64,000 bases of DNA from Mustelus asterias (taxonomy: Eukaryota). Below, piece after piece: positions 1,328 to 59,537 of this stretch. The notes beneath the pieces were generated by a model, which made no database searches, was not told where the DNA came from, and saw nothing but the letters and a program-made list of their open reading frames with translations. Numbering within the stretch: the stretch's first letter is position 1; the number at the start of each line of letters is the position of its first letter. The position numbers and the translations under genes were made by a program. The stretch covers positions 25,172,001 through 25,236,000 of the forward strand of contig NC_135808.1 of NCBI RefSeq assembly GCF_964213995.1, given 5' to 3'.

Positions 1328-2734
1328 TTATCTTGTCGCACCAATGTTCTTGTACTGACAGATAAGGAGATGCTTGAAGGTTTTCTTGAAGGAAGGGTTA
1401 CACAGGGCGTAGCATGCTGGGTTGATTGTACTGTTGATATATGCGAGCCAAAATCCAATAGTCCAGACATTGCTCGGGACACAGGTTGAACAGAAAGTGT
1501 TAATGAGCACTGTGACGAAATATGGGCTCCACGTAATGATAAATGCCAGGAGAATGGCCAAGATGGTTCGAGTCACTTTCTCCCCTCGAGATACAGCTCC
1601 CTTCTTCTTGTTCACAGGGGCATTGGCCATTATAATAATTTTATGGTCTGCTCTCTTGTCCCTTTCATTCCCATTCTTGCCTTTGAAACCTGGAACTTTT
1701 CTTTCAGCGGTATCACAGTCACTTTTCTGATATTTGCGAACAACCTTTATGAAAGTAAGTTTGGGGTAATCCATCCTGGAACTGCTTTGAGCATCACAAA
1801 TATTTCTGCACCCGTGCATGGTTCCTTCATCCTTCCCCTTTGCTGATACCACGCTGGACGATGTTGACTCTTTGGATAATTCAATCTCATCTCCTTGGCA
1901 ACAATTCTCAATTGTTATTTCGTCAGTTATTATGTCATTTTGCATTTTTACATTTGCCAACCCATTAGGAACATAGAACATGTTGCAATTATTCGGTTTC
2001 ATTATTTTGCCCTTCACCTGACTCTGAGTAGCTGTGTCTTTGCTTGACCCAGTCTCTTTATTACCCTCCTTGACACGACTTTTGCTAGCATGAGATATTT
2101 GCACATATAATATCACCATGATAGTAACAGGGAGGTAGAAGGCAACCAAGGCAGTGCCGAACGTGACAGCTGGATTGGAGAATAACTGCACATAACACTC
2201 GCCCTCACGGACTGTCCGCTCCCCTACGATGAACTGCCAGAAGAGAATGGCAGGAGCCCACATGATAAAGGACACCACCCAAACAGCTGCGATCATAATC
2301 CCTGCCACCTTGGCTGTTCTCTTCACGGGGTAGCTGAGGGGCTTTGTCACGCAGAAGTAGCGGTCAAAGCTAATGACAAGGAGGTTCATGCCAGAAGCAT
2401 TGCTAGCAACATAATCTAGAGCAAGCCACAAATCACATACAACAGGGCCCAACGGCCAGTAGCCAACAACAGTGTAAATGGTGTACAAATTCATAGAGAA
2501 CAAACCGATAAACAAATCAGCACAGGCTAAGCTGAAAAGAAAGTAGTTGTTAATGGTTTGTAAATGTCTGTTTACTTTTATAGACACAATAACGAGAACG
2601 TTTCCAATAATTGTCACCAAGCTTAAAGATCCTGTCACAATCACAATGAAGACCACTTCGACTGTATTGTAAGAACTCCCTCTTTCAGCAGTTTGATTGT
2701 TGAGAGATTCACCTATCTGTGTTGAGTTTTCCAT
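1328..2734 (-). CDS. CHRM2: Muscarinic acetylcholine receptor M2-like, copy A (468 aa, single coding exon, altered orthosteric pocket)
   Basis: Intact 7TM ORF with M2 signatures: [82 protein letters not shown] and C-terminal YKNIGATR. Splice acceptor (ttttctacatttag|) 36 nt upstream of the ATG, AG at 2771-2772. Paralog, not necessarily the 1:1 ortholog. Confidence 0.95.
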
Positions 2735-3146
2735 TATTTTACTCTGATGTGTATTTGATACTGACGAGGCCTAAATGTAGAAAATAAAATAATAAACCTG
2801 AACTAGATTTCAGATGTGTTGAAGTCAAAAGACTTGATGATTGAAGTTCTACCTGTAAGATAATAAAAGCACATATTTCCTTCGAAACTTTAATATCTTC
2901 CCGGGCCGTAATGTAATCTAATAACACATATAATGCAATTATATCTAATAGTTAGTTGCTTGTGTCAAACCTGTCCACCAGGATTTTGCTTTCAATGATC
3001 AATTTCTCATAGTTCAGAAAGTTTTGTGTTTTGCAAACTTCTAACTATTACGGTAGAATACATTTACCCTTTTTATTCATTTAAGTTCATGCATCCAGAC
3101 CACAAACACAAGTAAAAGCTGAAAGTTTCAATCACTGAGGGAAGTG

Positions 3147-3530
3147 AGTCCTCTATGACTCTATGAGGGGCATAGATCAGCTAGATAGTCAATATATGTT
3201 CCCAAAGGTGGGGGAGTCTAAAACTAGAGGGCATAGGTTTAAGGTGAGAGGGGAGAGATACAAAAGTGTCCAGAGGGGCAATGTTTTCACACAGCGGGTG
3301 GTGAGTGTCTGGAACAAGCTGCCAGGGATAGTAGTAGAGGCAGGCACAATTTTGTCTTTTAAAAAACATTTAGATAGTTACATGGGTACGATGGGTATAG
3401 AGGGATATGGGCCCAATGCGGGCAATTGGGATTAGCTTAGGGGTTTTAAAAAAAGGGCGGCATGGGACAAGTTGGGCCGAAGGGCCTGTTTCCATGCTGT
3501 AATCCTCTATGACTCTATGACTATGACTCT
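3147..3530 (+). mobile_element. 5'-truncated CR1 LINE
   Basis: CR1 ORF2 C-terminus (SKTRGHRFKVRG...FTQRVVSVWNKLP), (GACTCTAT)n tail and AAGTG flanking both ends. Absent at the homologous site of unit B (about 33760). Confidence 0.85.
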
Positions 3531-3961
3531 AAGTGTTGCACGACGAATAGATGCATTAGTGCTATCCATGCCTCACATAAATTGTAACCATGCTAGACAA
3601 TGAGCACTCAAACAGAGGCAGATAGGTGAGACAGGGTTGAAATTTCACCTCTGGGAGAGGGATATCTGGGATTGAGTCACTTTTTGTGGATATCATTCAT
3701 TTCAAAACAGATTTTTATGGGTCGCATTAAGGGGACCTCATACAGGTCTTAAATATATAATTTCAGTAAGTATATGACTAGCTTTCTTATGTGAACTGAA
3801 TTAAATAAATTACGAGGTTGTTATTTTCTCTTTATAGTATTTTAAAGCAATCGTAGGAACTGAATGGACATAGTTCAAATGACAATCCTCTCGCTGGAAC
3901 TGGTGATGGTAGTGGTCGTGGGTTTGGAACGTGCTGCCGAATAACCCTTGGTGTATCCTAA

Positions 3962-4232
3962 AGTATTTATTTATTAGTCACAAGTATGCTTACATTAACG
4001 CTGCAACAAAGTTACAGTGAAAATCTCCAAGTCGCCACACTCCAGCGCCTGTTGGGGTACACTGACGGAAAACTTAGCATGAGCAATGCACCGAACCAGC
4101 ACGTCTTTCGGAATGTCGGAGAAAACTGAAGTTCCAGGAGGAAACCAATGCCGATACGAGGCGAACGTACATTCAGGTCCACTGCTGCAGTGAGGCAGCA
4201 GTGCTAACCACTGTGCCACCTTACCGCCGCTG
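3962..4232 (-). mobile_element. tRNA-derived V-type SINE (L2-like tail variant)
   Basis: Reverse complement of GGTGGCACAGTGGTTAGCACTGCTGCCTCAC...ATTTTCACTGTAACTT...AATAAATAAA. Confidence 0.75.
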
Positions 4233-6000: not shown

Positions 6001-7120
6001 AACAAAGAACAAAGAAAAGAACAACACAGGACATTTGACCGCCCAAGCCTATCCCGATGATGATGCCCTATCTAAACTAAAAAAAACCTTCCACCATTAC
6101 TCCAGTCGTATCCCGCTATTCCCTCCCTATTCGTGTAACCATCCAGATGCCTCTTAAATGTTGCTAATGTGCCTGCTTCCACCAGCTCCTCTGGCATCGC
6201 ATTCCATGCACCCACCACTCTCTGCATGAAAAAGCTCCCCCGCACATCTCGCTTAAACTTTCCCCCTCTCACCTTAAATCTGTGCCCCCTTGTAATTGAT
6301 GTGTCCAACCTTGGGGAAAGCTTCTGACTATCCATCCTGCCTATGCCTCTCATTATTTTGTAGATCTTTATCAGGTATCCCCTCAGCATCCGTCTTTCCA
6401 GTGAAAACAATCCTAGTTTATTCAACCTCTCACAATGAACACCCTCGAGATCAGGCAACATCCTGGTGAACCTCCTTTGCACTCTCTGCAAAGTTTCCAC
6501 GTCCTTCCCGTAATGTGGTGACCAGAACTGTACGCAATACTCCAAATGTGGCATAACCAAGGTTTTCCATAGGTGCAACATGATTCAACAACTGTTGTAT
6601 TCAAAGCCTCGGCTGATGAAGGCAAGCATGCCATATGCGTGCTTAATCACCTTGGCCACCTGTGTTGCCACTTTTAGGAAACGGTGGACCTGCACGACCA
6701 GATCACTCTATGTCAATGTTCCTAAGGGTTCTGCCATTTTTAGTATAATTCACACCTAAATTTGATCCTCCAAAATGCATCACCTCACATTTGTCCTGAT
6801 TATACCCCCTCTGCCATTTCTGTGCCCAGGTCTCAAATCTACCTATATCCTGTTGTATCCTCTGACAATCCCCCGCACTATCAGCAACTCCACTAATCTT
6901 CGTGTCATCTGCAAATTTGCTAATCAGACCACCCATATTTTCCTGCAGATCATTTGCATCTACTGCAAACAACTGAGATCCCAACACTGATCCTTGTGGA
7001 ACACCACTAGCTACAGATCTCCATTCTGAAAGGCACCTTTCCACCACTATTCTGTCTTACTCCTTACTTCTCTAACCTAGCCAGTTCTGTGTTCATTTAG
7101 GCAGCCCGAATTCCATGCGA
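6001..7120 (-). mobile_element. CR1 LINE 3' fragment (RT and C-terminus, frameshifted)
   Basis: SGVPQGSVLG, KFADDTK, HLEYCVQFWSPH; tail of short TTCTTTG-type repeats. Confidence 0.9.
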
Positions 7121-9753: not shown

Positions 9754-10652
9754 TCATTTAATGAATTTAACAAGTTGAGCAAATGGATATTTGACCATAT
9801 ACTTCAACTGCTCTCTGAACTTGTTCTGAGTCACGGCATGAATACAAATATGCATGTAGCAACGCAGGAGCTGCAACATGAACCCTATTTCCTGTAGACA
9901 GTGAGACACGAATAGAGACTCATAACCTAAAAACCACATTCGAATCCATATAGAATGGAACACATGTACTGACCATAACAAGATGAAATTCCCAGAGACA
10001 ACAAACAATAAAATGATGGATTTTCTATGACTCTCCACCTCTGGGACTCTGGGACTCTCCCTACTGCTGCGATCCTGGAGTCTCCTTCGGACCCCATTGG
10101 GCAATAAAATGTGTCCAACGGTGAAAGCATTGAGAAGCAGAATCAGAAGAAAAGGGACTCCCGGTGTAAGAATGTAGTGGATGAATTCGGCCAGTAACCA
10201 GATTCGTGATTGTTTAATATTGTTTGGTATGGAACAAAGCCAGGGGGAATTCCACAGCCGAAATTCGTCTATGAGCATGAAATACCATGTGACATCCTTT
10301 AAGGAAATCAGCGCCGTCACTGTCGAAAGAGCCAAAACTGCTGTTTTCTCGGTGCAATATTTACTTTTCAGCTTCTCACAAAAAATTGCCACAAACCGAT
10401 CCATGGTGAAAGTGACGGTGAACCAGATAGAACAGTCTCTGGCTACATGAAGCAGAGTGATGTGGATATTGCATGCGTGGATGACATACACGAAAATAAA
10501 ATGTTTCTGCTCAACAATCAGAATGTGTCTTATTGCCATGTCGATAATAACAAACAGTAGATCCACTGCTGCCATGGCCACCAGATAACGTGTAACACAT
10601 TTGGAGAGACTACACTTTCCCCGGGACAGGATCACCATTGTCACTACGTTAA
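9754..10652 (-). CDS. GPR139-like orphan GPCR copy A, coding exon 2 (333 aa spliced)
   Basis: Acceptor tctatctctttctcatag|TT AAC GTA. 899-nt open frame with ILSRGKCSLSKCVTRYLVAMAAVDLL, TFTMDRFVAI and KFREQL, typical of the expanded chondrichthyan GPR139-like family. Confidence 0.9.
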
Positions 10653-13096: not shown

Positions 13097-13199
13097 GTGG
13101 AACACCAATAGCAGCAAGGAGACGGTAGTAAATCTTTTCTAAGTCATTAATGAAATGAATTATCTTCAATTGGTCCATTCCCGTGGAGCTACTGATCAT
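13097..13199 (-). CDS. GPR139-like orphan GPCR copy A, coding exon 1
   Basis: 103 nt encoding MISSSTGMDQLKIIHFINDLEKIYYRLLAAIGVP plus 1 nt, followed by a consensus donor C|GTAAGT (13091-13096). The phase-1 join to exon 2 restores TM1 (GVPLNVVTMVIL). The second Met is an alternative start. Confidence 0.88.
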
Positions 13200-13385
13200 T
13201 GTTCATGTCAAAGGAGATGTTCCCGCTCACATTGAAAGGTGTCTCTCATTAATAGCAGAGTGGAGCCCTCAAGAGACATAGATCAGCTCCATGGAGACTG
13301 GTATTAATTACAGTCACGGAACAGACAGGTTCAGTTAACCATTTACAATCGAATGTCTTTATCATCACAGCATATACTTCATCAT
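13200..13385 (-). promoter_or_regulatory. Candidate 5'UTR/proximal promoter of GPR139-like A, conserved with 45582-45785 of copy B
   Basis: Colinear non-repeat homology with shared TATTAAT, TCCATGGAG, TTAACC and CAGCATATACTT motifs. Confidence 0.5.
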
Positions 13386-13484: not shown

Positions 13485-16400
13485 AACAAAGAACAAAAGA
13501 ACAAAGAACAATACAGCACAGGAACAGGCCCTTCGACCCTCCAAGTCTGCGCCGCTCATGTGCCCAACTAGACCATTCTTTTGTATCCCTCTATTTCCAG
13601 TCTGTTCATGTGGTTATCTAGATAAGTCTTAAACGATCCCAGCGTGCCCGCCTCAATCACCTTGCTTGGCAGTGCATTCCAGGCCCCCACCACCCTCAGT
13701 GTAAAATACGTCCCCCTGACATCTGTGTTGAACCTTGCCCCCCTCACCTTGAACCCGTAACCCCTTGTGTTCATCACCTCCGACCTGGGAAAAAGCTTCC
13801 CACTGTTCACTCTATCTATGTCCTTCATAATTTTATACACCTCTATTAGGTCACCCCTCATCCTCCGTCTTTCCAGGGAAAACAACCCCAGTTTACCCAA
13901 TCTCTCCTCATAGCGAAGACCCTCCATACCAGGCAACATCCTGGTAAACCTTCTCTGTACTCTCTCCAAAGCCTCCACGTCCTTCTGGTAGCGTGGCGAC
14001 CAGAACTGGATGCAGTATTCCAAATGTGGCCTAACCATCGTTCTATACAGCTGCAACATCATATGCCAACTTTTATATTCTATCCCCTGTCCAATAAAGG
14101 CAAGCATGCCACATATCTTCTTCACCACCCTCTCCACCTGTGCTGCCATCTTTAAGGATCTGTGGACTTGTACACCCAGGTGCCTCTGTGTGTTTATACT
14201 CCTGATGGTTCTGCCATTTATTGTATAGCTCCCTCTTACACTAGATCTACCAAACTGCATCACTTCGCATTTATCTGGATTAAATTCCATCTGCTATTTC
14301 TCCACCCAATGTTCCAGCCTATCTACATGCTGCTGTATTCTCTGACAATGTTCCTCACTATCCGCAACTCCAGCAATCTTCGTGTCATCCGCAAATGTAC
14401 TGATCACACCAGCTACATCTTCCTCCAAATCATTTATATATATATATATATATCACAAACAGCAGAGGTCCCAGAACAGAGCCCTGCAGAACACCACTGG
14501 TCACAGACCTCCAGCCGGAAAAAAGACCCCTCCACTGCTACCGTCTGTCTTCGATGGCTAAGCCAGTTCTCCACCCATCTAGCGAGCTCACCTTTTATCC
14601 TGTGAGATTTAAACTTTTGCACCAGCCTGCCATGAGGGACCTTGTCAAACGCTTTACTAAAATCCATATAGATGACATCCACGGCCCTTCCCTCGTCAAT
14701 CGTTTTAGTCACCTCCTCAAAAAACTCAACCAAATTTGTGAGGCATGACCTCCCTCGTACAAAACCATGCTGTCTATCGCTAATGAGATTATTCAGTTCT
14801 AAATGCGCATATATCCTATCTCTAAGAAGCTTCTCCAACAACTTCCCTATGACAGACGTCAAGCTCACCGGCCTATAATTACCCATGTTATCCTTGCTAC
14901 CCTTCTTAAATAACGGGACCACATTTGCTGTCCTCCAATCCTCTGGGACCTCACCTGTGTCCAGTGAAGAGACAAAGATTTCTGTTAGAGGCCCAGCAAT
15001 TGCATCTCTCGCCTCCCTGAGGAGTCTCGGAAAGAAGTCCTTGGCCCTGGGGATTTGTCGGTCTTAATGCTTCCGTAAAAACCTAACACTTCCTCCCTTG
15101 TAATTGAGATTTTTTCTAACGGGTCAACACATCTCTCTAAGACACTACCAGTCAACATGTCCCTCTCCTTTGTGAATACTGATGAAAAGTATTCGTTTAG
15201 GATCTCACCTACTTCCTTCGGTTCCAAGCATAATTCTCCTTCTTTGTCCCTGGGAGGTCCAATTCTTTCCCTAACAACCCTCTTGTTCCTAACGTATGCC
15301 TTAGGATTCTCCTTAATCCTGTGTGCCAAGGACATTTCGTGACCCCTTTTTGCCCATCTAAGTCCCTGTTTGAGTTCTTTTCTACTTTCTCTGTATTCCT
15401 CCAGTGCTCCATCTGTTTTTAGCTCCCTGGACCTCAGGTATACCTCTTTTTTCTTTTTGATTAGACCCACAATTTAACTGGTTATCCACGGCTCCTGAAT
15501 CCTACCTTTCCTATCCTTCCTCTTTACAGGCACATGCCTGTCCTGCAGACCTATCAACTGCTCCTTAAAAAACTCCCACATGCCAAATGTGGATTTACCC
15601 TCGAACAGCCTCTCCCAATCAACAGCCACCAAATCCTGCCTAAACCGGCTGTAGTTAGCCTTCCCCCAATTCAGCACCTTACCCATAGGACAATATTCAG
15701 CTTTTCCCATTACTGTCCTGAAGTTCACAGAATTGTGTTCACTATTTGCCACATATTCCCCCACTGCAACATTGATGAGCTGACCGGGCTCATTCCCCAG
15801 TACTAGGTCCAGTATAGCCGTCTCTCCAGTTGGACTGTCAACATATTGTTCCAAAGAACCTTCCTGTACGCATTTTATAAATTCTTCCCCGTCCAGGCCC
15901 CCAGCCCTAAGCGATTTCCAGCCTATGTGAGGGAAATTAAAGTCTCCCACTCCAACAACACTATTTCTTCTGCATCTGTACAGAATCTCCTTACATAAGC
16001 GTTCCTCAACGCCCCGTGGGCTGTTGGGAGGCCTGTAGTATACCCCGAGCATAGTGACTGCGCCCTTCCTGTTTCTGAGCTCCACCCAGAGTGACTCGTT
16101 ACCTGACCCTTCCATATTGTCCAGCCTCTGTACCGCTGTAATATGCTCCCTAACCAGCATTGCTACTCCCCCATTTCTCCTAGCCCCTCCTCTGTCTCGC
16201 CTAAAACACTTGTACCCCGGAATATTCAGCTGGCAGTCCTGTCCTTCTTTTAACCAAGTCTGCGTCACTGCAACCACATCCAAGTTCCGCACAAGCATTA
16301 AGGCTCTAAACTCATCTGCCTTGCCCGTGACGCCCTTTGCATTGAAGCAGATGCATTCCAGACCTCCAGGCCCACTGAAGTCTTCTTCCCCCACAATGTC

Positions 16401-17640
16401 CTTCCTCTTAGATAGCCTTGTCTTGGCCCCAACCTCGTCCCCAGCCTCTTTGCTTATTGACCTATTGTTTTGATCCCCACCCCCCGCCACATTAGTTTAA
16501 ACCCACCCGAACCACACTAGCAAAACTCCCAGCTAGGATATTTGTACCCCTCCAGTTTAGGTGCAACCCATCTTTCTTGTACAGGTGCCAACCTCTCTTG
16601 AAGACTTCCCAGTGATCTACGAAATCAAAACCCTCCCTCCTGCACCAGTCCTTTAGCCACATGTTCAGCCGTGCAGTCTCCCTGTTCCTAGCCTCACTAC
16701 CTTGTGGTACTGGGAGTAGTCCTGAGATCGCTACCCTCGAGGCCCTGCTTTTTAGCCTACTACCCAACTCCCTGAATTGCTCTCGCAGGACCTCCCTGCT
16801 TTTTCTGCCTACGTCATTTGCACCAATGTGGACAATGACGTCTGTCTGGTTACCCGCCTTTTTTAGGATGCTTCCTACCCACTCAGAGACATCCAGGACC
16901 CAGCACCAGAGAGGCAGACTACCATCCTGGAGTCTCGTTCACGCCCACAGAACCACCTGTCTGTGCCTCTAACCATTTCATCACCCACTACTATTGCTCT
17001 CCTGGTTCCCCTCTTTCCCTTCTGAGCCACAGAGCCCGATTCCGTGCCAGTGACCTGGTAATCGTGGCTTACCCCTGGAGGGTCATCCCCCCCCTCACAG
17101 TATCCAAAACGGTATACTTATTTTGGAGGGGGACAACCACAGGGGATCCCATCACTGACTGCTCTCTCCCCTCCTCTCTCCCGTCTGACATCCATCCCTT
17201 ACTGTTAAGGGGGACAACCACCGGGGTACTCTCTGGTACGTGACCTTTACCCTTCCTAACCGCAACCCACGTGTCTTCCTCTCCTGGCCCTGGTGTGACG
17301 ACCTGCCTGTAACTTCTATCTATTAACTTCTCATTTTCCCTGACTAGACTAACTTCATCGAGCCGCAGCTCCAGTTCCTTAACACGGTCTCTGTGAAGCT
17401 GCAGTTCGACGCACCTGGCGCAGATATGGACTTCCGGGAGGCTAGGCGTCTCCATGAACTCCCACATTCAACACCGACAGCAATAAAATGGCCTCCCACT
17501 CATAATTACCCGTTTCTTTAAATTACTGGATGAACGAAGAACAGTACCTACCCTGCCTCTGCCTGTTTATGCCGAAGCCCGATGAGCCAATGCCCTTTAG
17601 CCCTCACTCTGCTCCCTGCCCACTCCGCTGCCCGCTGCTG
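13485..17640 (-). mobile_element. Near-full-length CR1 LINE (ORF1 zinc finger + SGNH esterase; ORF2 APE endonuclease + RT), inactivated
   Basis: ORF1 HICARCVELQL and DGLHLN; endonuclease GVYYRPPN/GDFNFP; RT NYRPVSLTS, QHGFVRGRSCLTNL and DFSKAFDKV. Several frameshifts and an (AT)n expansion at about 14434-14452. Confidence 0.95.
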
Positions 17641-21474: not shown

Positions 21475-24400
21475 AGAAACATACATGGAAAATAAAAGCA
21501 TGAGTTGGCCATTCGGCCCTTTGAGCCTGCTCTGCCATTCATTATGATCGTGGTTGATCATCAAATTAAATACCCTGATCCCGCGTTCCCTCCATGTCCC
21601 TTGATCCATTTAGCCCCAAGAGTTATATTTCATTACTTCTTGAAATCACACAACGTTTTAGCATCACATTCATTCCGTGGTTGTGAGTTCCACACATTCG
21701 TCAGCCTCTGGGTGAAGACATTTTTCTGCACCTCAGTTAAACATTGAAAGCTTTTCACCATTCTGGAAGGATTCTACGTTCTAGAGGGATTACCCCCTGT
21801 CCTCAAACTGTGACCCCTAGTTCTGGCCTCCCCCACCTTCGGGAACATTCTTTCTGAATCTACCCTATCGAAACCTGCTAGAATTTTGTACGTTTCAGTA
21901 AGATTACCTCTCACTCTTCTGAACTCCAATGAATATAATCCAAACCGACTTAACCTCTCCTCATATGGCATTCCTGCCATCCCAAGAAGCAGCCTGGTAA
22001 ACCTTCAATGCACTCCTTCTGTAGCAAGAACATTCTTACTCAGATAAGGACACCCAAACTGTAAACAAAATACTCCAGGTGTCACCTCACCAGTAAAATT
22101 GTAGTAAAATATCCCTATTTCTGTATTCAAATCCTCTCGCTATGAAGGCCAACGTGCTATTTCCGTTCTTTATTCCCTGCTGTACCTGCACGCACACATT
22201 CAGTGAATGATGCACGAGGTTTTACCACGTATTCATCTTTTTTCATTCAAATAATAATCTACCATCCTGTCTCTGCTACTAAAGGCGACAACCTCACATT
22301 TATCCAAACGACCCGCTATCCCATTTGCTTTATCATTAGATAGTAAACTGCTATGTCAGACAATTTAAAAAGTATTCTGAAAATCTAAATAAACCACCTC
22401 TCTCTGGTCAACTCGATTATTTACATCCTGAAAGAATTCCAGTAGAATTTTCAAGCATGATTTCCCTTTCATAAATCCACACTGACTGTGTCGATTATAC
22501 CACTGCTTTCCACAACTGCTATGAAATCCTTGATAATGAACTCTAACGCCTTCCTTACTACCGATGTTAGGCTCACTGGTCTACACAAAGGAAGATATTA
22601 ATAACACAAAAAACGGGTGGAACTTGAATCACAGGGGGACCAATATCCTGGCCGGTAGGTTGGCTAAGGCTACTGGGGAGAATTTAAACTAGATAGGTTG
22701 GGGGGAGGGGAGCTAGAAGAGTTGACTGGATCAAGGAACTAATTGATGGGGGGGAGGATGCAGGGGTAAGGGGAATTACAAAATTAATGGTAGAGGAGAG
22801 GGTGCAAGTGAATGAAGGCGGTAATTTAGATAAGGGAGTAGAGGGAGAGGGTGTTCGTGACTCATCAAAGCGGGTCCAGATAAAAGCTGGAATAAGGACA
22901 CTTTGCCTGAATGCACGAAGCATTCGGAACAAGGTAAATGAGTTGATGGTGCAAATCAGCACAAGTGGGTACGATCTAGTGGCCATTACAGAAACGTGGC
23001 TGAAAGGTGACCAGGACTGGGAGATGAATATCCAGGGGTATCAGGCGTTTAGGAAGAATAGACAGGAAGGAAAAGGTGGTGGGGTCGCGCTATCAATAAG
23101 AGATAATATCAGGGTAGTACTGAGGGATGACATAGGCTCTGAGGAACAAAACGTGGAATCATTATGGGTAGAGATGAGGAATAGTAGAGGGAGAAAGACA
23201 CTAGTAGGTGTGGTATATAGGCCCCCAAATAATAATGTTGAGGTAGGGAGGGCTATAAACAAGCAGATAAGGGATGCGTGTAAAAACGGAACGGCAATAA
23301 TCATGGGGGACTTCAACATGCACATTGACTGGCAGACTCAAGTCGGTAAGGTTGGAATGGAGGAAGAGTTCGTAGAATGCTGTCGGGATAGTTGCCTTGA
23401 ACAGCATGTTACGGAACCGACGAGGGAACGAGCTATTTTGGATCTGCTATTGTGTAACGAGGTAGGTAGAATTAAGGATCTTATTGTGAAGGACCCTCTT
23501 GGGTCTAGTGACCACAATATGGTCGAATTTCTGATTCAGATGGAAGAGGAGAAAGTTTGGTCCCAAACCAGTGTCCTCTGTTTGAACAGAGGGAAATATG
23601 ATAGGATGAATTGGCTAAGGTAGGCTGGGAGAGCAGGCTGGCAGGTAGGATAGCTGAGGAACAGTGGAGGATTTTTAAGGAGATCCTTTTCAGTTCTCAG
23701 CAAAAATATATTCCAGCAAAAAACAAGGATTGTAAGAAAAGGGAGAACCAGCCGTGGATAACGAAGGAAATAAAGGAGAGTATTAAAATAAAAACAGCTG
23801 CGTACAGAGTGGCCAAAAATAGTGGAGAAACAAGTGATTGGGAAAAATTTAAGAAACAACAAAGAGAGACTAAGAAAGCGATAAAGAAAGGAAGGATAGA
23901 CTATGAAGCTCGGCTAGCAATTAATATAAAAAATGATAGTAAAAGTTTTTATAAATATATAAAAAGGAATAGAGTGGCTAGAGTGAATGTTGGACCCTTG
24001 GAGGACGAGAGGGGGGAGTTAATAATGGGAAATGAGGATATGGCTGAGTCTTTAAATAAGTTTTTTGTGTCGGTCTTCACGGTGGAGGACACAAATAGTT
24101 TACCAAATATTAACGATAGAGGGTTGGCAGCAGGAGAAATACTTAATACAATTAATGTTACCAGAGAGGCAGTGCTGGGTAGACTAATGGGACTGCAGGT
24201 GGACAAGTCCCCGGGTCCGGATGGAATGCATCCCAGGGTATTGAAAGAAATGTCAGAGGTAATAGTGGATGCGTTAGTGATTATTTATCAAAACTCGTTG
24301 CATTCTGGGGTAGTGCCGGTTGATTGGAAAACGGCTAATGTTACGCCGCTGTTTAAAAAAGGAAGGAGACAAAAGGCGAGTAACTATAGGCCGGTCAGCT

Positions 24401-31884: not shown

Positions 31885-33309
31885 CTATCTTGCTGTACGG
31901 ATGTTTCTGTACTGACACAGTAGAAGATGCTTGAAGGTTTTCTTGAAGATAGGATTACACAATGCGTAGCATGCTGGGTTGATCGTGCTGTTTACATAAA
32001 CGAGCCAGTATCCAGTAATCCAGACTGTGTTGGGGACACAGATTGAACAGAACGTGTTAATAAGCACCATGGCAAAGTATGGGCTCCAGGTGATGATAAA
32101 TGCCAGGAGAATAGCCAGGATGGTTCGAGTCACTTTCTCCTCTCGTGATCCTGCTCCCTTCTTCTTGTTGTTCAAAGGGACATTGGCCATTGTAATAATC
32201 TTATTGTCTACCCTGCTTTCTCTGTCATCCCCATTATTACCATTGAGACCTGACACTCTTCTTTCCGTAGGACCACAGTCGTCACTGGATGTAGCTTTGC
32301 TCACTATCTTTATGATCGAGAGTTCGGAGTTCTTCATTGTGAAAGTGCTCTGAGCATCATAAACATTCCTGCTCCCTTGTATGGTCCCTTCATCCTTCGG
32401 GTTTGATTGTGCAACACTGGGCGATGTTGACCCATTGGGGAGACCCTTCTCTCCTGCTTGGCCACACTTATTATTTGTTATTTCACTAATTATTTTGCCA
32501 TTTTGTACTGTGACATGTGCCAACAGATGAGGACCATTTGCTATGTTGTTCTTATTTTGTTTGAGTATTTTGCTCTTTATCAAACTGCAAATAACAGCGT
32601 ACTTGTTTGATTCGGTTTCCTTTTTATCCTCCTTTACACGACTCTTGCTAGCACGTGATATTTGCACGTACAAAATCACCATGATAATAACAGGGAGATA
32701 GAAGGCAGCTATTGCAGTGCCAAAAGTGATGGCTGGATTTGTGAGGAACTGCACATAACACTCACCATCACCAACTGTCCGCTGCCCAACGATGAACTGC
32801 CAGAAGAGAATGGCAGGGACCCACAGGATAAACGACAGCATCCAAGCCGCTGCAATCATCATCCCCGCCGTTCTCACTGTTCTATTCACTGGGTAGGTCA
32901 AGGGTTTTGTCACGCAGAAGTAGCGGTCAAAGCTGATGATAAGGAGGTTCATGCCAGAGGCACTACTGGCAACATAATCGACAGCAAGCCACAAGTCACA
33001 TACCACTGTGCCCATCGGCCAGTAGCCAGTAACCGTATAAATTGTGTATAGGTTCATAGAGAATACACCAATAATCAAATCAGCACAGGCCAAGCTGAAA
33101 ATAAAGTAGTTGTTAATGGTTTGCAAATGTTTGTTTACTTTGATTGAAACGATGACTAGAATGTTTCCAATAACTGTTACCAGACTTAAAGGTCCTGTGA
33201 CAATGACAATGAAGACCACTTCGACCATTTTGTAAGGACTCTCTCTTTCCCCACCAAACACGCCTGTTGGGTTGCTGAGAGATTCATTTGCCTCTGTTGA
33301 GTTTTCCAT
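31885..33309 (-). CDS. CHRM2: Muscarinic acetylcholine receptor M2-like, copy B (474 aa from the ATG at 33309)
   Basis: Intact ORF paralogous to copy A. The ATG (MENSTE) aligns with the copy A start, and the acceptor ttttctacatttag| (AG at 33346-33347) is again 36 nt upstream. Confidence 0.95.
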
Positions 33310-34384
33310 CAGTCCCCTCTGATGTGCAGTAAGCAATGACGGGTCCTAAATGTAGAAAAGCAAATAATAAATAAGAAACAGATTTCAAGTTTTTCGAAGT
33401 TAAAAGCTACCAATAACTCATTGAAGCTCTATCAGCAAGAACATAAAAAGCTATTGGCTTTTATCAACTTGAATATGTTTGTCAAGAGTGACTTGGTTTT
33501 AATTCAGAAGCATCTCATTGGCTTATTACTATACAATTAATTATGAATTAATAGTTAACTCCTTGTGTCGAACTCAATGACACGGCAAACATGTCTGTCA
33601 GGCTTTTAGATTCAATGATCCAGTACATCTGGTTCAGACATTTTTGAGCTCTTCAAATAATTACCTGTTAAGGGAAGAATACTTAAACTCCATTGATTTT
33701 TTAATGTTAATGCATCCATTCAACATACTCACGTAAATTATTACAATCCCTATCACTGAGGTAAGTTTTGCGAGAAGAACAAATGTTACACAGTTATCCC
33801 TCCCTCATAGAAAGAATAGCTGAAAGGTACAATTAGTAATCTAGTTGTAAAATTACCTTTCTGGTGAGTGACCACAGTATGATATAATTTGCAATGATGG
33901 TTGAGAGTGAGGAAGTTAAACATGAAACCTGGATATTAAAGTTGAATAAACTGAATTATGAAGGCAAGAGGGAGAAATTGACTCATAGGGATTGGGAAAA
34001 AAATTGAAATGCATGACAGTTCATAGGTAACGGCGAGTCTTCACAAAAGTATTACATACATTCCTTCAAGTTCCAAAAACAGAAGTTAAAAAAAGCCAGC
34101 TGACAATGGCTAACAACAAAAGTTAAGGATTCTACGATACTAACGGGAAAGGCCTAAAAAGTTGGAAGAATTAGTTGTTAACCTGATGATTGGGAGGTTT
34201 GTAGAATTAAACCAAGTACGGCAAAGAAGCTGATAAATAAAAGGGAAAACAGAATGTAAATACAGTCTCGCAAAACCCACAAGAAAACGGAACGTAAAAA
34301 ACTTCTATCGGGATGTCACAAGAAGATGTTTGACGAAGACAAATGTATGTCTCCATTACAAACTGACAATTAATAGAGCAGCAA

Positions 34385-39000: not shown

Positions 39001-39603
39001 AAAACGTACCCTCGTTTCATATCTATTTTTATATTATGTCGCAATGACATGGTGCCATTTGTTACCATGATAATTTCTGGCCACATGTGCTATCATTTTA
39101 AATTGAATCTAATTCAATGCTTTGAAGAGGTATTTGTTTAGCCCACATTGCATGATCTGTGCTATAGCCAGCTTAAGCTATCGGCAATGTGGTTATTTTA
39201 ATTGATAAGCATAATGCTGATTTGATGCGATAAATGTTGTGATTAGGGAACATTTTACATCGGTTGTACGACACAGGGAGTAGGTCATTCAGCCTAACCA
39301 GTCCACGTCCATGTTCCGCTCGCGTCTATATAAATATTATATATATATTATATATATATAATCACAACATTTATCGCATGAAATCAGCATTGTGCTTATC
39401 AATTAAAATAACCACATTGCCGATAGCTTAAGCTGGCTATAGCACAGATAATGCAATGTGGTCTAAACAAATACCTCTTCAAAGCATTGAATTAGATTCA
39501 ACTTAAAATGATAGCACATGTGGCCAGAAATTATCATGGTAACAAATAGCACCATGTCATTGCTACATAATATAAAAATAGATATGAAACCAGGGTACGT
39601 TTT
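39001..39603. repeat. Inverted duplication with 245-bp arms (39001-39245 and 39359-39603)
   Basis: Arms are reverse complements with about 8 mismatches counted by eye and a 113-bp spacer. The right arm is bounded by (TA)n on both sides. Confidence 0.93.
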
Positions 39604-41276: not shown

Positions 41277-42175
41277 TCATTTAATGAATGTAAGAAGTTG
41301 AGTGACAGTACAGTTCACCAGATTCTTCAACCTCTCTCTGAACTTGTTCTGAGTCAGGGCATGAATACAAATATGCGTGCAACAACTTAGGAGCTGCAAC
41401 ATGAACCCTATTTCCTGTACACAGTAAGGCATCAATACAGACTCATAGCCAAAGAACCACACACGAACCCCTATAGAGTAGACAACATATGTTGACCATA
41501 ACAAGATGAAATTCCAAGAGAAAACAAAGAATAAAGTAATGGATTTCCTTCGACTCTCCATCTCTGGGTTCCCGGGAAGCTCCCCATTGTTGCAAACATG
41601 GAGTCTTCTCTGCGCTCTGCTGGCCAAAAAAATATGTCCAACCGTGAAAGCATTGAGCAGCAGGATTAGAAGAAATGGGATTCCCGGACTGAGAATGTAG
41701 TGAAGAAATTCGACGAGTGACCAGACCCCTGGTTCGATAATAGTGCTGGGTACGGAACAAAGCCAGCTGGCGTTCCACAGCCAAAAAGGAACTGTAAGCA
41801 TAAAATACGACATGATGCCCTTTAGACAGCTCAGTGCTGTCACAGTACCAAGAGCAAAAATTGCAGTTTTCTCTGTGCAATACCTAATTTTCAGCTTCTG
41901 ACAAGTAATTGCCACAAATCGATCAAAGGTGAAAGTGACGGTGAAACAGACAGAACAGTCTCTGGCGACATGGAGCAGAATTACGTGAACATTGCACATG
42001 GGGATGACATGCACGACAAGTAAATGCTTCTGATCAATAATCGGAATGTGTCTTATTATCATGTTGGTAATAACAAACAGTATATCCACCGCTGCCATGG
42101 CCACCAGATAACGTGTAACGCATTTGGAGAGTCTACACTTTCCCCGAGACAGGATCACGATTGTCACTATGTTAA
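41277..42175 (-). CDS. GPR139-like orphan GPCR copy B, coding exon 2 (333 aa spliced)
   Basis: Acceptor tatctctttctcgtag|TT AAC ATA. 899-nt open frame, the same length as copy A, with TFTFDRFVAI. Confidence 0.9.
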
Positions 42176-45478: not shown

Positions 45479-45581
45479 GTGGAGCACCAATAGCAGCAAG
45501 GAGAGGATAGTAAGTCTTTTCCAAGTCAATGATGAACTTAATTATCTTCCATTGGTCCATTGCTGTGAAGTCACTAATCAT
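45479..45581 (-). CDS. GPR139-like orphan GPCR copy B, coding exon 1
   Basis: 103 nt encoding MISDFTAMDQWKIIKFIIDLEKTYYPLLAAIGAP plus 1 nt, donor C|GTAAGT at 45473-45478. Same length and phase as copy A. Confidence 0.88.
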
Positions 45582-46859
45582 TATACATTTCAGAGGTGAT
45601 GCACCCGCTGACTGGAAGAGATATAGCACATTGAATGCTGTGCCTTATTAATATCAGAACAGAGTCCTCCAGGGACACAGATTAGTTCCATGGAGGGTGA
45701 TATTAAGTATAGTGACTGAACAAACAGATTCAATTAACCCCCTTCAATCCAAGGTCTGTGTTTGTGCAGCATATACTTGATCAGATTTGTGCCATGTAAA
45801 TCTTACAATGTCTGTCCCTCTACTGAGCAAAGCGCACCCGGTATCCAAATCAGTCGTCATTCTCAGATATCTGTCTCATGACATTGCATCATGCTTGGCG
45901 CCCAACTTTCTGTTACGCAGTCCTGGTCGGGCCCAGGAAACGTGGTCCCTGCCACATTTCATGCAGTTGAAGACACGACCGGGCGGAACATTCTAACCTC
46001 AATTTGCTCTTCGCCCTATTCACAGCTAGTTGAGACTTCCATTTATGTTCCCATGCCGCAACGTCTCTTTAAACAGTTAGCCTCCAGTTCCCATAGTAGT
46101 CAATGATTCTCTCCCAGTTGTCTGTCAATGTCCTCCATATCCATGTTCCATTTGCAGGTGCCCCATTAATGTCGGTTTGGGTGTTCATCGGGTTGTGAGA
46201 CAGTGAAAAATTCACTGTCCTGAAAGTATTTAGATATGTCATTTCTTTATGGCATTTCTTCAGCAGGGATCTTCTTGCACAGATCATGTCAATTATCTTC
46301 CATTTCACAAACTGCCCCGAAAATCCATGTGGATGCTCTGAGTCAATTCCTACAGTCTGACGAGTGTGACGTGGACAAATATCTGTTCCAGATGTTCAAC
46401 AAGGAGACTCATTGACCCTTGCAGCAATCACCACAACTGCGCTTATTCTGCGACCCGGTCTCAATGTTTGGGCAAGATTTTCCGATATTTCCGCGAAGTG
46501 TGAAGGCGGACGGAGAAACTGGATTGTTGCTGAATGGTAGTGCTGGCGGGTTTGCCGACATTTCTTTGCTCTCGCTTCTCCGCATGTTTCGCGATGGCGG
46601 CGTGATCTTATGACCTTGCCGTTTTTAACGGGGTGCTCCATTGAATGGATCCATAGCCGCTGGGAAACGTGGGTTATGCCTTCGGCGGGACCGAAGAATT
46701 CCACCGGAGTGAACGGCAGCAGGATTTTGGTGTTACACAGGAAATCTTGGGTTTTATCAGCGACAGACAGAATCTGATTACGTTGAGGCTGATTGCTTCA
46801 GTTACTGGGGGTCTCCACTCATATGCCTTCTCAGCACCTGTACAAGCTCCAACTTAGAG

Positions 46860-51305: not shown

Positions 51306-51329
51306 GTACACTCCAGAATACTTCAGCAA

Positions 51330-54441: not shown

Positions 54442-55857
54442 CTATCTTGTTGCAGCAATATTATTGTACTGACATAAGAGAAGATGTTTGAACGTTTTCT
54501 TGAACGTAGCATTACATAATGCGTAGCATGCTGGGTTGATGGTACTATTGATGTAGCAGAGCCAGTATCCAATAATCCAGAATGTGTTGGGGACGCAGAT
54601 TGAACAGAAGGTGTCAACAAGTACCATGACATTGTAGGGGGCCCAGGTGATGATAAATGCCAGCAGTATGGCTAGGATGGTCTTAGTTACCTTTTTCTCT
54701 CGAGATGCAGCTCCTTTCTTCTTCTTGGCAGGGACATTGGACAACGTAACAATCTCATTGTCTGCTCTGATTTCTCTGGCATTACTATTCCCGCTGCCAC
54801 TACCTCGCATGATACCTGTTATGCTGCCACAATCATTCTTTACAGATGTTCGAGTTGTTTTTAAGCAGGAGAGTTTGGAGCTGTCCATCCTAAAAGAGCT
54901 TTGTGTAGTAGAGATGGTTGTACTCTCTTCTACCGCCCCTTTCTCCTCTTCCATTTTTTGGACCCCACTTGGAGATTTTGACTCATTGTAGAGTTCCTTC
55001 TTCTCTTGGCTACAAGTATTAATTATTATTTCTCCAGTCATTTTGCCATTTTGCAGTTTGACTTGTGACAAATGAGCCGAATTATCTGAAATGCTGTTTT
55101 TGTTCAGGTCCATTGTCTTGCCCTTCGCTGGAGTGTGTGAAATGATTTCCTTGCTTGATTCATACTCCTGTGTATACTCTTTCATTCGGCTTTTACTGGC
55201 ACGAGATATTTGCATGTATAAAATCACCATGATAACGACAGGGAGATAAAAGGCAGCCACAGCCGTGCCAAAAGTGACAGCTGGATTTGAGAAGAACTGT
55301 ATATAACACTCACCCGCAATAACTGTCCGCTCCCCTGTGATGAATTGCCAGAAGAGAATCGCAGGAGCCCACAAAACAAACGACAGCACCCAAGCAGCTG
55401 CGACCATCATCGCTGCCATCTTCGCTGTTCTATTCACTGGGTAACTCAGTGGCTTTGTCACGCAGAAGTAGCGGTCAAAGCTGATGACTAGGAGGTTCAT
55501 GGCAGATGCATTGCTGACAACATAATCTAGCGCGAGCCACAAATCACATACCACTGGACCCAATGGCCAGTAGCCCATTACAATGTAAGTGGTGTACAGA
55601 TTCATGGAGAACACGCCAATAATCAAATCAGCACAGGCTAAGCTGAAAATAAAGTAATTGTTAATAGTTTGTAAATGTCTGTTTACTTTGATAGAAACGA
55701 TGACCAGTATGTTTCCAATAATTGTCACCAAGCTTAAACATCCTGTCAAAATCACAATGAAAACCACTTCGATTGTTTTGTAATGACTTTCTCTTTCAAT
55801 ATCGAACAAGCCTGTTAGGTTGCCGTGAGTTTCATTTATTTCTGTTGAGTTTGCCAT
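54442..55857 (-). CDS. CHRM2: Muscarinic acetylcholine receptor M2-like, copy C (471 aa from the ATG at 55857, near-canonical pocket)
   Basis: Intact ORF with [20 protein letters not shown] and [31 protein letters not shown], essentially as in mammalian M2. The ATG (MANSTE) aligns with the A and B starts. Confidence 0.95.
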
Positions 55858-57199
55858 TATTCCTCTCTGAGGTGCAGTTAACACTGACGAGACATAAATG
55901 CAGAACAATAATTTTTTTAAAAAGAAACAGGTTGCAGATGTTCAAATTAAATTGGATGCTAATTGAAGTTCTACAAACAAGAACATTGAAAGGAAATTGT
56001 AAAATTCAAAATGTTTGTCAGAAAGAACTTTGTTCTAACCAGGATCTATCTCATGTGATAATTTATGAACAAATAATTATGAAATAATAGATAATAACTT
56101 GATGTTGATGAGGGTCTTTGCCAACATGTCTCCTTGTTTTATATTTATTGATCCGATTGTTCTGGGTTAATTAGCTTTGCTCTTAGTATGTTGGTAAAGC
56201 AAAGTCACCACAGCCACAAAAGTCCACAGACTGTTTTCCCCTTTGAGGGGAGAAGCTGACTGGTGGTGACTAAACCTGAGGATCACAACACCTCTGGCAA
56301 GGAGCAAGGTTGAGAAGGCTTGCCTTTATGAATTTGTTCAGCCGGTATGGGAATTGAACCCGCCTCACTAACCAGCTGGCCAGCCAACTGAGAATGCAGC
56401 GCAGGTTGCCATCGTGGGATGGCAGGATTTTTGAATGATGAGGGATTAGTTCTGACAGGCCCTTGCTTGCATTTAGAAGAATGAAAGTGGATCTAATAGA
56501 AACGTACACAATTTGGATAGGGCTGGAAAAATGTATATTTCCTCTGACTGGAATGTCTCGAACAAGGTGCAACAGTCTCAGAATGTTTGCATCGTCCTGT
56601 GAGGTAAGACAGTTTTAAATCACATCAGAGAGCACATACGCCACTCCAGATTTCTCCAACTGATTCTGCATCCTCCCACCAGAACATCACTTCCTCAGTA
56701 CTGATTATCCTGAAATATTTCCTCAATGCTGATCCTCTGATTGTGCAGCTCCTCTTAACTACACCCCCCCCACCCCCCATCCCACTACAGTCTGGTACTC
56801 CTATCCTTATGAAAGTGCAAACTATATTCAGTGATGACCATCCTTACACCACTGAAGCATTCCCTCAGTATTTGAGGGAATAGACTGTCATCAGATTCTC
56901 CACTGTTTGGGAAATCAGTGATTTGGTGGAAAAACTAGACGAAATAACTTGTCCTCTGTTAATGTACAAATGTGCATGCAATTCTAACCGCGCTGCATAA
57001 GGTTGAGGAGGGATGATGTTTCCCCTGGCTTGGACCAAACAGTCACGGTTGCAAGATACGGGGTTGGCTATTTAGGTCGAAGACAAGGAGAAACGGCTTC
57101 ACTCAGAGGGCGGTGAACATGTGGAAAGCTCTACCACTAGAGTATGAATAATCTCTGCCACAGGTTGAGTGTCTTGGGCTGCAAGAGGTAATGGTTAAA

Positions 57200-58085
57200 T
57201 GGGCAGATATGTGACAGATGGAAATTAAACTTGAAATGTGTGAGGTGATAACATAAGAATGAATAATTTGTCAAGCAATTATTCAATGAACGGCCAGACA
57301 GTAAGAACGTCCTACTGTCCCAAAGGGACCTTAGGGTATTTGTCCACAGATCGCTGAAGACGGAAAGACAGGATAGTAGGGTGGTGGAAAAGGCATACAG
57401 GGCACTTGCCTTTATCAAACGAGGCACCGATTACAAAAGCAGGGAAGTAATGTTGGAGTTGTGCAGAATTGTGGTGAGGCCATAGCTGGAGCAATATGTC
57501 CAGTTCTGTTCACCACATTATAAGAAGGACCTACTTGCACTCGATGGTGTGCAGAGGAGATTCCCCTGGATGTTGCCTGAAAGGGAACATTTAAGTTATG
57601 AAGAAAGGTTCTTTAGGCATGGGTTGTTTTCCTTGGATCAGAGAAGATTGGGTGGGGGGAGGGGCGTGGTGGGGGGGGGGGGGGGCGTGGGGTGGTGGGG
57701 CGGCTGATAGAGGTGTGCAATACTATGAGGGGCATGGACAGAATGGATAATAAGAAACTGTCCCTCTTAGTTGAAGAGTCAGTCACGAGGGGACACAAGT
57801 TCAAGATGAGGGGCAGGAGGTTTAGGTTTAATGTTAGGAAAAACGTTTCTGCCCAGAGGATGTTGAAGGCCTGGAATGTGCTGCCTGAGAAGGTGGCAGA
57901 GGCACATTTCCTCATATCCTTTAAAATGTTCCTGATGAGCACTTGGCACGTCATAACGTTCAAGGTTATGTGCCAAGTGCCCGTAAATGGGTTTAGTGAG
58001 GACAGGTGTTTCTCAGGTGTTAGTAGAGACTCAAAGGGCAGAAGGGCCTCTTCTGCACTGTATAATTCTACAATTCTGCAATTCT
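57200..58085 (+). mobile_element. CR1 3' fragment with an internal G-rich expansion (about 57649-57702)
   Basis: ESVTRGHKFKMRGRRFRFNVRKN...KAWNVLP; CTGCACTGTATAATTCT-type tail. Confidence 0.8.
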
Positions 58086-58608
58086 AAGTGATTGGAGGCT
58101 AAGTCACTGATGTGCTTAAGAAGGAAATAAAATTTCTAAACGCTAAAAATGTCGAAGGTATTGGCAGAGAGTGCAAGAGTATGGTGTTGAGAAATAGAAC
58201 ATCAGGCAAGATGACATTGAATGATAGAGCAGGATTTATGAGCTGGATGGCCTGCCCCTGCTTCTATTATCTATGTGCATGCATCCCACTCATCTCGTCT
58301 CTCTCCCCGTGCACTGCCGCCCCACGATTGCGCCCTATACACGCTTGTTTTTAATTAAAGGAATCTTTCCACTTGCAGCAACTCTTTTCCGTGGATACTT
58401 GACATTTGTAATGTTGTCTCCACGTTGCCTTTAGCATTTAACTGTCTTAAATTTATTCAGCCACGCGGCTGCACATTTTGCCAGCCTATGTTCTTTTATT
58501 ATTGCTCGCACTGAATACTGTGTTTGAATCTTGTGTCCCATTTTACCGTTTAAATTACATCTCTTGGACTCAACTCCAGATAATTAATGCATCAACTGGA
58601 ACAAGGAA

Positions 58609-59537
58609 TTAGCGTTGATGTTGGAAATTATTCACTCTTTTCACCATAAATTTCGCAATTTGAGAACAGAGATATTTGGACATATTCTTAAACTGCTCTC
58701 TGAACTTTGTCTGAGTCGCAGCATAAACGCAAGTGTTTGTGCAACAATTCAGGAGCTGAAGGTTGAATCCTATTTCTTGGACATTATCGGTCAACAGTAC
58801 TGACCCATACCCAAAAAAAGACATTTTAACCCATACATAATACATAATATATATTGAACAAGACAGGATGAAATTTCCAGAGATTAACAGCAGTAAAAAT
58901 ATATAATTTCTTCTGCTCTCTATCTCTAGGTCTGTGAGATTTTCCTTACTGCTGTGACCCTCAAGACTCCTGTGGGTTCTGTCGGAGAATAAAATATGTC
59001 CAACAGTTAAAACACTGAACAGCAGAATTAAAACATATGGGACACCCAGGGTGAGAATATCGTGAATGAGAATGACTGTGAACCAGCCTTGCAATTCCGG
59101 AACATTGTTTGGTACAGAACAAAACCAGGGGATGTACCACAGTCCATTCTGATCTGTTAATACAAAATGCCACATTGTAGCCTTTAAACAACACAAAAGT
59201 ATCACTATTCCCAGAGCTGCAACCGCCGTTTTCTCACTGCAATATTTCCTTTTCAGCTCCTTGCAGTAAATGGCCACAAATCCATTAAAAGTGAAAGTGA
59301 CAGTGAACCAGGCAGAAGAGTCTGCGGTTGCATAAAGCAGGGTGCCAAGGACATTGCACATGGGGACGTGATAGTCAAAAAGAAACTCTTCCTGATAGAC
59401 TGTCAGAATGCTCCTCATTATCAGGTTGATAATTATTACCAGCAGGTCTGCTGCTTCGATGGCCACCAGGTAGCATGTAAAACCCTTCGAGAGACCACAC
59501 TTTCCCCGCAACAGTATCACAATTGTCACTACGTTAA
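58609..59537 (-). CDS. GPR139-like orphan GPCR copy C, coding exon 2 (exon 1 not found, presumably beyond the window end)
   Basis: Acceptor ttccctctttctcgtag|TT AAC GTA. Open frame with ILLRGKCGLSKGFTCYLVAIEAADLL and NTCVYAATQTKFREQF. The DRF motif is replaced by NGF, so function is uncertain. Confidence 0.8.

Follow-up and report, generated by a model that had tools for sequence, protein, structure and literature searches.

What gene arrangement would make muscarinic M2-like and GPR139-like receptor frames alternate three times along one stretch of shark DNA, and what keeps them together? We addressed this question in a window of 64,000 nucleotides (nt; contig C8, NC_135808.1, positions 25172001-25236000) from a genome of 3.68 Gb, whose source was placed among the galeomorph sharks by homolog names and trees. 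Open reading frames (ORFs) and coordinates confirmed the layout that a first look at the letters (the original prediction) had proposed: six G-protein-coupled receptor (GPCR) frames, all open and all on the minus strand, M2 and GPR alternating three times. The best explanation, to which we assign a probability of about 0.6, is that a GPR139-like host gene captured the coding exon of CHRM2, which would have borrowed the host promoter, and that the resulting unit was then amplified. Probably, then, the alternating genes share a single unit of transcription and gave rise to a new, diversifying family of muscarinic receptors instead of a cooperating pair.

The best match of the M2-like proteins in the PDB is muscarinic M2 (E 2.3e-187; ranking M2 > M4 > M3/M1/M5), and trees nest the copies among shark M2a sequences, away from M4, placing them in the CHRM2 lineage rather than that of CHRM4 or CHRM1/3/5. 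The canonical CHRM2 is a single-copy gene on another contig (C9:36018353) that falls in the conserved shark M2a cluster; the window genes are distinct from it. Protein searches of the whole genome, one scoring 90 candidates and the other 93, recovered 14 more pieces of M2 type, which all lie on C8 in the interval 21.27-25.34 Mb; two of these are fragments and one carries a stop. M2-A (1328..2734, minus strand, 468 aa), M2-B (31885..33309, minus strand, 474 aa) and M2-C (54442..55857, minus strand, 471 aa) are each an intact, CHRM2-derived single coding exon.

Counting from the ATG, the alignment of the C8 copies with CHRM2 on C9 spans about -1150 to +2170, a segment comprising the end of the last intron, the splice acceptor, the coding exon and 3' DNA. 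In unit A a remnant of that last intron (3531..3773, minus strand) is 72% identical to C9 at -719 to -470 from the ATG. Because the intron end, the acceptor and 3' DNA were all carried along, the copy was made at the DNA level and not as a retrocopy; retroposition is ruled out by intronic flank extending to -1152. No upstream CHRM2 exon or promoter was seen in the units when the 8 kb upstream of CHRM2 on C9 were compared with them (the 5' exons of the shark gene were not located), and the remaining matches within those 8 kb are short dispersed repeats. No GPR139-like match was found in the 100 kb around CHRM2 on C9. Judged from these alignments and trees, the C8 genes originated from a CHRM2 exon and were then amplified. 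A CHRM4 gene (C9:81125186-81126589) shares the contig of CHRM2, 45 Mb away, through either a fusion or an assembly join; the two genes lie on different chromosomes in human, chicken and gar.

What lies upstream of each M2 exon is the 5' end of a GPR139-like gene. The GPR frames begin at a splice acceptor within the first transmembrane helix (TM1), and a short coding exon 1, absent from the original prediction, precedes each of them by 2.4-4.5 kb, with 82 nt and a phase-1 donor. In the direction of transcription a unit therefore reads upstream element, GPR139-like exon 1, GPR exon 2 and M2 coding exon, the reverse of the M2-then-GPR order given earlier. Unit A has the upstream element at 13320..13339, an MDQ-type exon 1 with a GTAAG donor at 13097..13178, and an open exon 2, running from the second half of TM1 to the C-terminus, at 9754..10652. 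The corresponding features of unit B are at 45719..45738, 45479..45560 (again with a phase-1 GTAAG donor) and 41277..42175. Unit C has an open exon 2 at 58609..59537 and the 3' end and donor of exon 1 at 63995..64000, with the rest of exon 1 and the upstream element beyond the window (C8:25236001-25236240); all are on the minus strand. A CHRM2-derived segment without donor 5' exons (over the 8 kb compared) is preceded, in the same orientation, by the 5' end of a host gene, which is the anatomy of a chimeric gene.

The genome holds 13 such units over 4 Mb of C8, of which the three in the window stand in tandem. The same type of exon 1 lies upstream and on the same strand of 13 of the 14 M2 pieces on C8, at a donor-to-ATG distance of 1,866-12,170 nt in the 12 units that retain the M2 5' end; the sole piece without a host upstream element and exon 1 is a broken fragment. 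Full-length matches to exon 1 and its upstream DNA occurred at only these 13 places among the 40 candidates scored in each of two genome searches, and other family members found there had only the upstream part in common. Within that part, a 20-nt element is exact in 13/13 units and has 213 occurrences genome-wide (3 for a control), most of them at clusters of GPR139-like genes; this cis element belongs to the host family and is a putative promoter element. The 46-nt block that holds it diverges by 0.16 between clades, compared with 0.31-0.47 at M2 four-fold sites.

The units differ in what else they keep. M2 is intact in 11/13 and GPR exon 2 full-length in 7/13 (one of these lacking the acceptor AG). 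The original prediction held that both partners are retained in each unit; both are intact in only six of the 13, and in five (D, E, F, G and J) an intact M2 stands beside a GPR exon 2 that is truncated, frameshifted, decayed or deleted. Units E and F, both with a broken exon 2, are near-identical recent copies. The upstream element and exon 1, by comparison, are present in every unit, including dispersed and inverted ones and those with exon 2 deleted, a retention that argues for promoter dependence rather than receptor co-function. The proposal of a cooperating pair is accordingly unsupported, since the host 5' end, and not both receptors, is what all 13 units keep. At one locus (L010, C8:21351800-21353241) a deletion leaves the last third of the M2 exon 176 nt past the GPR stop; the GPR frame there is open and its acceptor AG is lost.

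Trees of the upstream region plus exon 1, of exon 2 and of M2 are congruent, with the groups (A,B) with D, (G,(E,F)), C and a 21.3-Mb group, except for one recombinant unit, J, which combines the exon 1 of K with the M2 of L. Co-amplification as one unit, proposed at the outset, is upheld, as is evolution by birth and death. As far as trees of this kind can tell, congruence shows co-duplication and not co-function. At loci L017-L022 and L002-L006, the E/F units (inverted, 2.4 Mb apart) and the J/L M2 genes are about 99.5% identical, and are either recent inverted duplications or assembly artefacts.

Selection was measured as the ratio of non-synonymous to synonymous divergence (dN/dS), computed pairwise with our own Nei-Gojobori script, the pairs being non-independent. 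The M2 core is under purifying selection, as had been proposed, with dN/dS of 0.21-0.24 among A, B and C and a median of 0.34 over 45 pairs at dS of about 0.4-0.5; the third intracellular loop (IL3), with a median of 0.88, is near neutral. One could suppose that most M2 copies are not expressed and are passively carried along in a receptor cluster that is unstable and prone to duplication. The near-neutral IL3, the two fragments and one stop among the 14 pieces, and the near-identical inverted copies E/F and J/L, which suggest ongoing rearrangement, all fit this supposition; the constrained core does not, and neither do intact catshark orthologs of the A, B, C, D, G and K types. Selection has already largely refuted the passenger explanation, and we regard it as very improbable.

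The host exon 2 presents a different picture. Among linked copies its dN/dS is 0.65 (21 pairs), and in a comparison of linked with free copies it is 0.69 (28 pairs) versus 0.40 (13 copies, 74 pairs), where the free baseline is biased towards top-scoring, consensus-like matches. Of 106 family-invariant columns, linked GPRs keep 71-91% and free ones 93-99%; the window proteins keep 79% (A), 80% (B) and 71% (C), against a minimum of 89% among 118 family proteins. The DRF motif, present in 113 of those 118, is changed to NGF in GPR-C, which gives no Pfam 7tm_1 match at E 0.001, and in GPR-A and GPR-B the TM7 motif N-x-x-x-Y has become H-x-x-x-H. These values suggest that the host exon 2 is relaxing or decaying in linked units.

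They also bear on the model of the original prediction, in which a Gi-coupled M2 and a GPR139-like partner are co-selected and kept for joint function. Both frames are open in all three window units and in 6/13 overall, the GPR dN/dS is below 1 (0.52-0.83), the trees are congruent, and a shared promoter would give co-expression, as that model would have it. It is difficult to reconcile with a GPR that is broken or absent beside an intact M2 in five units, with the loss of family-invariant signalling motifs in all three window GPRs, and with the roughly 1,800 members of the host family that have no M2 neighbour. The partner, moreover, is not a GPR139 ortholog by similarity. Taken together, these points make a co-selected pair improbable.

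The partner had been called GPR139-like; it is not GPR139 itself but belongs to a shark family that has about 1,805 copies in this genome. A single GPR sequence had no match in the PDB, and a profile of 37 family sequences reached human GPR139 as its best match at only E 2.8e-13. GPR139, like the shark family, has an intron inside TM1. The window GPRs have neither the high similarity nor the single-copy status expected of a GPR139 ortholog (a true ortholog was not searched for in the genome). The window genes do fit an elasmobranch GPR139-like family in their two-exon layout, phase-1 intron in TM1, upstream element and 55-63% identity to family members. Because the partner is so distantly related to GPR139, the argument from mammalian GPR139 that set Gq against Gi signalling does not carry over to it.

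The family size comes from a 32-nt TM3 pattern found at 1,805 places (0 for a control), a count that unplaced contigs may inflate. All 128 candidates scored in a genome protein search for the family passed. The database proteins matching the GPR numbered 1,640; among the 120 listed, every named match is from a shark or skate, and all carry the automatic name "probable G-protein coupled receptor 139". Clusters of the family, often arrays, lie on C5, C8, C11, C16-C19, C22, C23, C72 and many unplaced contigs, some of the latter with a spacing of ~62 kb. Some family members in other sharks (P0010-P0033) have N-terminal tandem 14-residue repeats with an N-glycosylation sequon and an ectodomain of variable length. 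This expansion, of which we found no description in the open-access literature, is possibly the larger story.

The order of events that we propose begins, as homology shows, with the CHRM2 last exon, together with ~1.15 kb of intron including the acceptor and at least 2 kb past the ATG, being copied as DNA from C9 to C8, where it came to lie right after the final exon of a single GPR139-like gene. A distance of 440 nt separates the host donor of unit J from the point where CHRM2-derived DNA begins, exon 2 being absent from the interval, and in unit I the CHRM2-derived DNA starts ~570 nt past the GPR stop; the exact insertion junction is unfixed, as GPR 3' flanks do not align past the stop. The whole unit (upstream element, exon 1, exon 2 and M2) was then duplicated to 13 before the catshark split, as the trees show. 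The part of PMC2198911 available describes human CHRM2 as having five untranslated exons, with confirmed promoters that map to exon 1 and to the first two introns. With transcription of CHRM2 starting at such distant untranslated exons, the M2 copy would have arrived promoterless. The host promoter would drive exon 1, whose donor would be spliced to GPR exon 2 in some transcripts and past it to the M2 acceptor in others, so that the two receptors would be alternative terminal exons. Such splicing would give M2 an N-terminal extension in 6/12 units, and elsewhere exon 1 would act as an upstream ORF. The probability given at the start applies to the inference that M2 is expressed through the host exon; origin and amplification follow from the alignments and trees.

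Under exon capture, a particular splice junction is expected. Two AGs precede the ATG of CHRM2, at -36 and -26, and in 12/12 M2 copies with a 5' end an AG, at an old site or a new one, follows a pyrimidine-rich tract. A phase-1 donor joined to the -26 acceptor is in frame. The CHRM2-intron-derived flank of unit A (2735..2833, minus strand) carries the polypyrimidine tract and both acceptors, of which -26 joins exon 1 in frame; that of unit B (33310..33816, minus strand) keeps only the -36 acceptor, out of frame with exon 1, and that of unit C (55858..56171, minus strand) only the -26 acceptor, in frame. Units A, C, E, F, G and I (6/12) are in frame without a stop. The complementary loss of the two acceptors looks compensatory, and over 7 clades is not significant.

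The phase of the exon 1-to-M2 junction was predicted before we examined a zebra shark RefSeq gene model (XP_048375722.2, P0240) in which 27 residues of the same exon-1 type are followed by 9 pre-ATG residues and M2. In the cloudy catshark, a gene model orthologous to unit B (GCB61165.1, P0274) uses the 36-nt site to link M2 with an MDQW exon that is shorter. By these two models, the exon 1-M2 arrangement is present in two other shark families. The predicted extension, 36 residues and partly hydrophobic in the 6/12 units, has a best 15-residue mean hydropathy of 1.0-2.0, compared with 2.6 (19 residues) for M2 TM1, and would be compatible with a signal-like segment in five of the six units, and is weak in A. 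The predicted fold of P0240 (mean predicted local distance difference test score, pLDDT, 48.5; residues 1-61 below 50) is uninformative on the extension.

Several observations count against capture with promoter borrowing. In K and H a stop directly precedes the M2 ATG; B and D have only the upstream, out-of-frame acceptor, and the strong exon-1 ATG of unit B would hinder M2 translation; J is in frame only through a weak AG, and the exon 1 of L is broken. Both fusions are gene models and come from other sharks, a search with the fused N-terminus returned P0240 alone (1/211 candidates), and the M2 ATG is the annotated start of most shark M2-like proteins. In A, B and C the GPR stop is followed at 111-296 nt by AATAAA hexamers, so that any read-through has to compete with termination. 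Where the GPR is dead, survival of the upstream block is statistically indistinguishable from recent death of that GPR, the block being 46 nt long and picked post hoc. Seven GPR exon 2 frames are open, and in a neutral, substitution-only simulation a frame stayed open in 16%, 2% and 0.5% of cases at 0.07, 0.14 and 0.25 changes per site; because only 2% remain open at 0.14, these exons have been constrained for much of their history. The bias of the free-copy baseline noted above belongs here too.

Some of these points favour two separate transcription units, with M2 using a proximal promoter in the intron remnant or a host enhancer, the GPR merely co-travelling, and the fusions being prediction artefacts. 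Linkage alone would yield congruent trees, most annotated M2-like proteins begin at their own ATG, the frame from exon 1 into M2 varies between units, poly(A) hexamers lie past the GPR stop, and a last-intron, proximal CHRM2 promoter was once reported in human, though unconfirmed, in the part of PMC2198911 available. Yet the DNA 300-45 nt before the M2 ATG diverges by 0.34-0.52 between clades, about as much as four-fold sites or more, compared with 0.16 for the host upstream block. The survival of the host 5' end in 13/13 units, even in dispersed or inverted ones and where exon 2 is deleted, and the finding that the only M2 piece without it (1/14) is broken, also speak for dependence on the host. 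We regard separate transcription units as unlikely, and retain exon capture with promoter borrowing as the better account.

The original prediction of a lineage-specific family holds: 31 shark M2-like proteins form one clade with a Shimodaira-Hasegawa-like approximate likelihood ratio (SH-aLRT) support of 99, in a quick tree that has long branches for two rows and includes only proteins listed from the protein searches. Its members come from this genome, two catsharks and the basking, whale and zebra sharks, and it branches among galeomorph M2a. Each window copy is matched by catshark counterparts, with support of 99 for A, 96 for B and 88 for C. With the intact catshark orthologs mentioned above, this tree places the amplification before the catshark split. 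Rays and skates (P0134-P0231, P0263-P0271) have separate M2-like clades (stingrays and mantas; skates), whose pockets carry distinct changes, at 6.52 and 3.37.

Residues were numbered by motif alignment. D3.32, Y3.33, R3.50, Y6.51 and Y7.43 are unchanged in 12/12 copies, and changes occur at V3.40 (12 copies), N6.52 to F (8), C7.42 (6), W6.48 to L or F (5) and Y7.39 to F (2), while none of nine shark M2a proteins has any such pocket change. M2-A carries V3.40G, N6.52F, Y7.39F and C7.42A, and M2-B N3.37S, V3.40G, N6.52F and C7.42V; the pocket of M2-C is near-canonical (V3.40A only). F6.52 is typical of monoamine receptors, and V-T-x-x-I-L in TM6 is a Gi/o-type motif, whose residues are unchanged in A, B and C, with a conservative I-to-V in 9/12 copies. 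The full set of invariant muscarinic orthosteric residues (D3.32, Y3.33, W6.48, Y6.51, N6.52, Y7.39 and Y7.43, as given in the available part of PMC9126879) is present in M2-C and three other copies, and incomplete in A and B. The same source lists N6.52, Y7.39, W6.48 and V3.40 as agonist-contact or switch residues. The substitutions suggest an altered ligand preference of the M2 copies.

In the last step of the proposed sequence, the M2 copies, placed in the cell type of the host family, would have stayed Gi-type amine-binding receptors, because D3.32 and the TM6 coupling residues are kept, while the pocket diversified; the host exon 2 would have become dispensable and would now be decaying. 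A further extension is tentative and, as a whole, rather doubtful. The GPR139-like family may be a shark sensory or immune repertoire under one promoter element, and CHRM2, once captured into it, may have been drawn into those cells and become a second family sensing non-acetylcholine amines or choline-like metabolites (N6.52F, W6.48L/F), with exon 1 as a signal-sequence-like leader, which would make a new chemoreceptor family switchable by alternative splicing. The accessible main text of a catshark sensory-organ paper (PMC11979771) contains no mention of GPR139, muscarinic or chrm.

Compared with M2-A, the other M2 copies are 65-69% identical, and the other GPR copies are 50-65% identical to GPR-A; the DNA of different units is 70-80% identical within the genes and has mostly lost its similarity outside them, in agreement with the original prediction. 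From these identities the units are old paralogs, neither collapsed nor duplicated assembly copies. Assembly contigs from four runs aligned to the unit-C stretch gave mostly repeat-derived matches. Two runs of one sample, possibly the source sample, covered most of the unique parts of unit C without differences, no piece spanning the stretch; no exon 1-to-M2 joint was among the joints shown, and 1,551 more lie beyond these. Strict alternation along the flanks, a check that we ran, stops after three units: the 20 kb beyond M2-A contain no M2 or GPR match, and in the ~100 kb beyond GPR-C another subfamily is represented by five to six GPR139-like genes or fragments, none accompanied by M2. This second subfamily (L025-L036, C8:25.245-25.345 Mb), just past unit C, has a different exon 1, and two of its copies have long open frames, the others being broken.

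The proposed unit-specific transposon insertions are borne out by reverse transcriptase (RT) and endonuclease ORFs that differ by unit. Endonuclease and RT ORFs of long interspersed nuclear element (LINE) type lie at 22697-25695 (plus strand), 14434-16496 (minus) and 61279-63178 (plus; Pfam Exo_endo_phos, RVT_1), and two copies, 24099-25794 and 61279-62982, are 90% identical. A 245-nt inverted repeat at 39001-39603, 97% complementary with a 113-nt spacer and TA-rich flanks, resembles a miniature inverted-repeat transposable element. An Rfam scan of the window gave no match.

Chimeric genes formed by exon capture or promoter borrowing are already known in general, jingwei, Sdic and TRIMCyp among them, and the shark unit would be a new case. 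As in those genes, a copied coding region stands behind a host 5' exon, through which it may be expressed, the host downstream exon decays, and the unit may amplify in tandem. Unlike them, the shark unit arose by a DNA-based copy that carried its acceptor along, donor as well as host belong to the class A GPCRs, about half of the units have two open terminal exons, and the result is an old multigene family. The cholinergic locus makes two unrelated proteins, ChAT and VAChT, from one promoter and first exon by alternative splicing, much as proposed here; that locus, however, is single-copy and ancient and its shared exon non-coding, whereas the shark exon is coding and the unit multi-copy. With CHRM2 and shark M2a the window genes share a single coding exon with an upstream acceptor and the residues conserved in 12/12 copies, but they are multi-copy, on another chromosome, on long branches, altered in the pocket in 12/12 and preceded by a foreign exon 1. 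The host family resembles GPR139/GPR142 and the shark "GPR139" annotation class, from which its profile distance and copy number set it apart. When trace amine-associated receptors (TAARs) expanded, according to the available part of PMC8890504, a brain or autonomic amine receptor likewise became a clustered, fast-evolving family with D3.32 kept; the shark M2 family came instead from capture into the locus of another family.

We found no description of this arrangement, or of a shark M2 expansion, in the open-access literature; the part of PMC6504862 available makes no mention of sharks. The part of PMC6298421 available, in which the word "cartilaginous" is absent, reports no muscarinic duplicate other than by tetraploidization in any vertebrate studied. 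Muscarinic receptors thus stand as a standard vertebrate family without local duplicates, and galeomorph sharks break that rule with an M2 family that is old, selected and pocket-diversified. Its anatomy suggests that a promoterless exon was captured by a member of a large orphan-GPCR family, itself of the size of an olfactory repertoire, and the predicted splice junction can be tested in public shark RNA data. The family offers natural variants of the muscarinic pocket for pharmacology and may bear on the cholinergic physiology of sharks.

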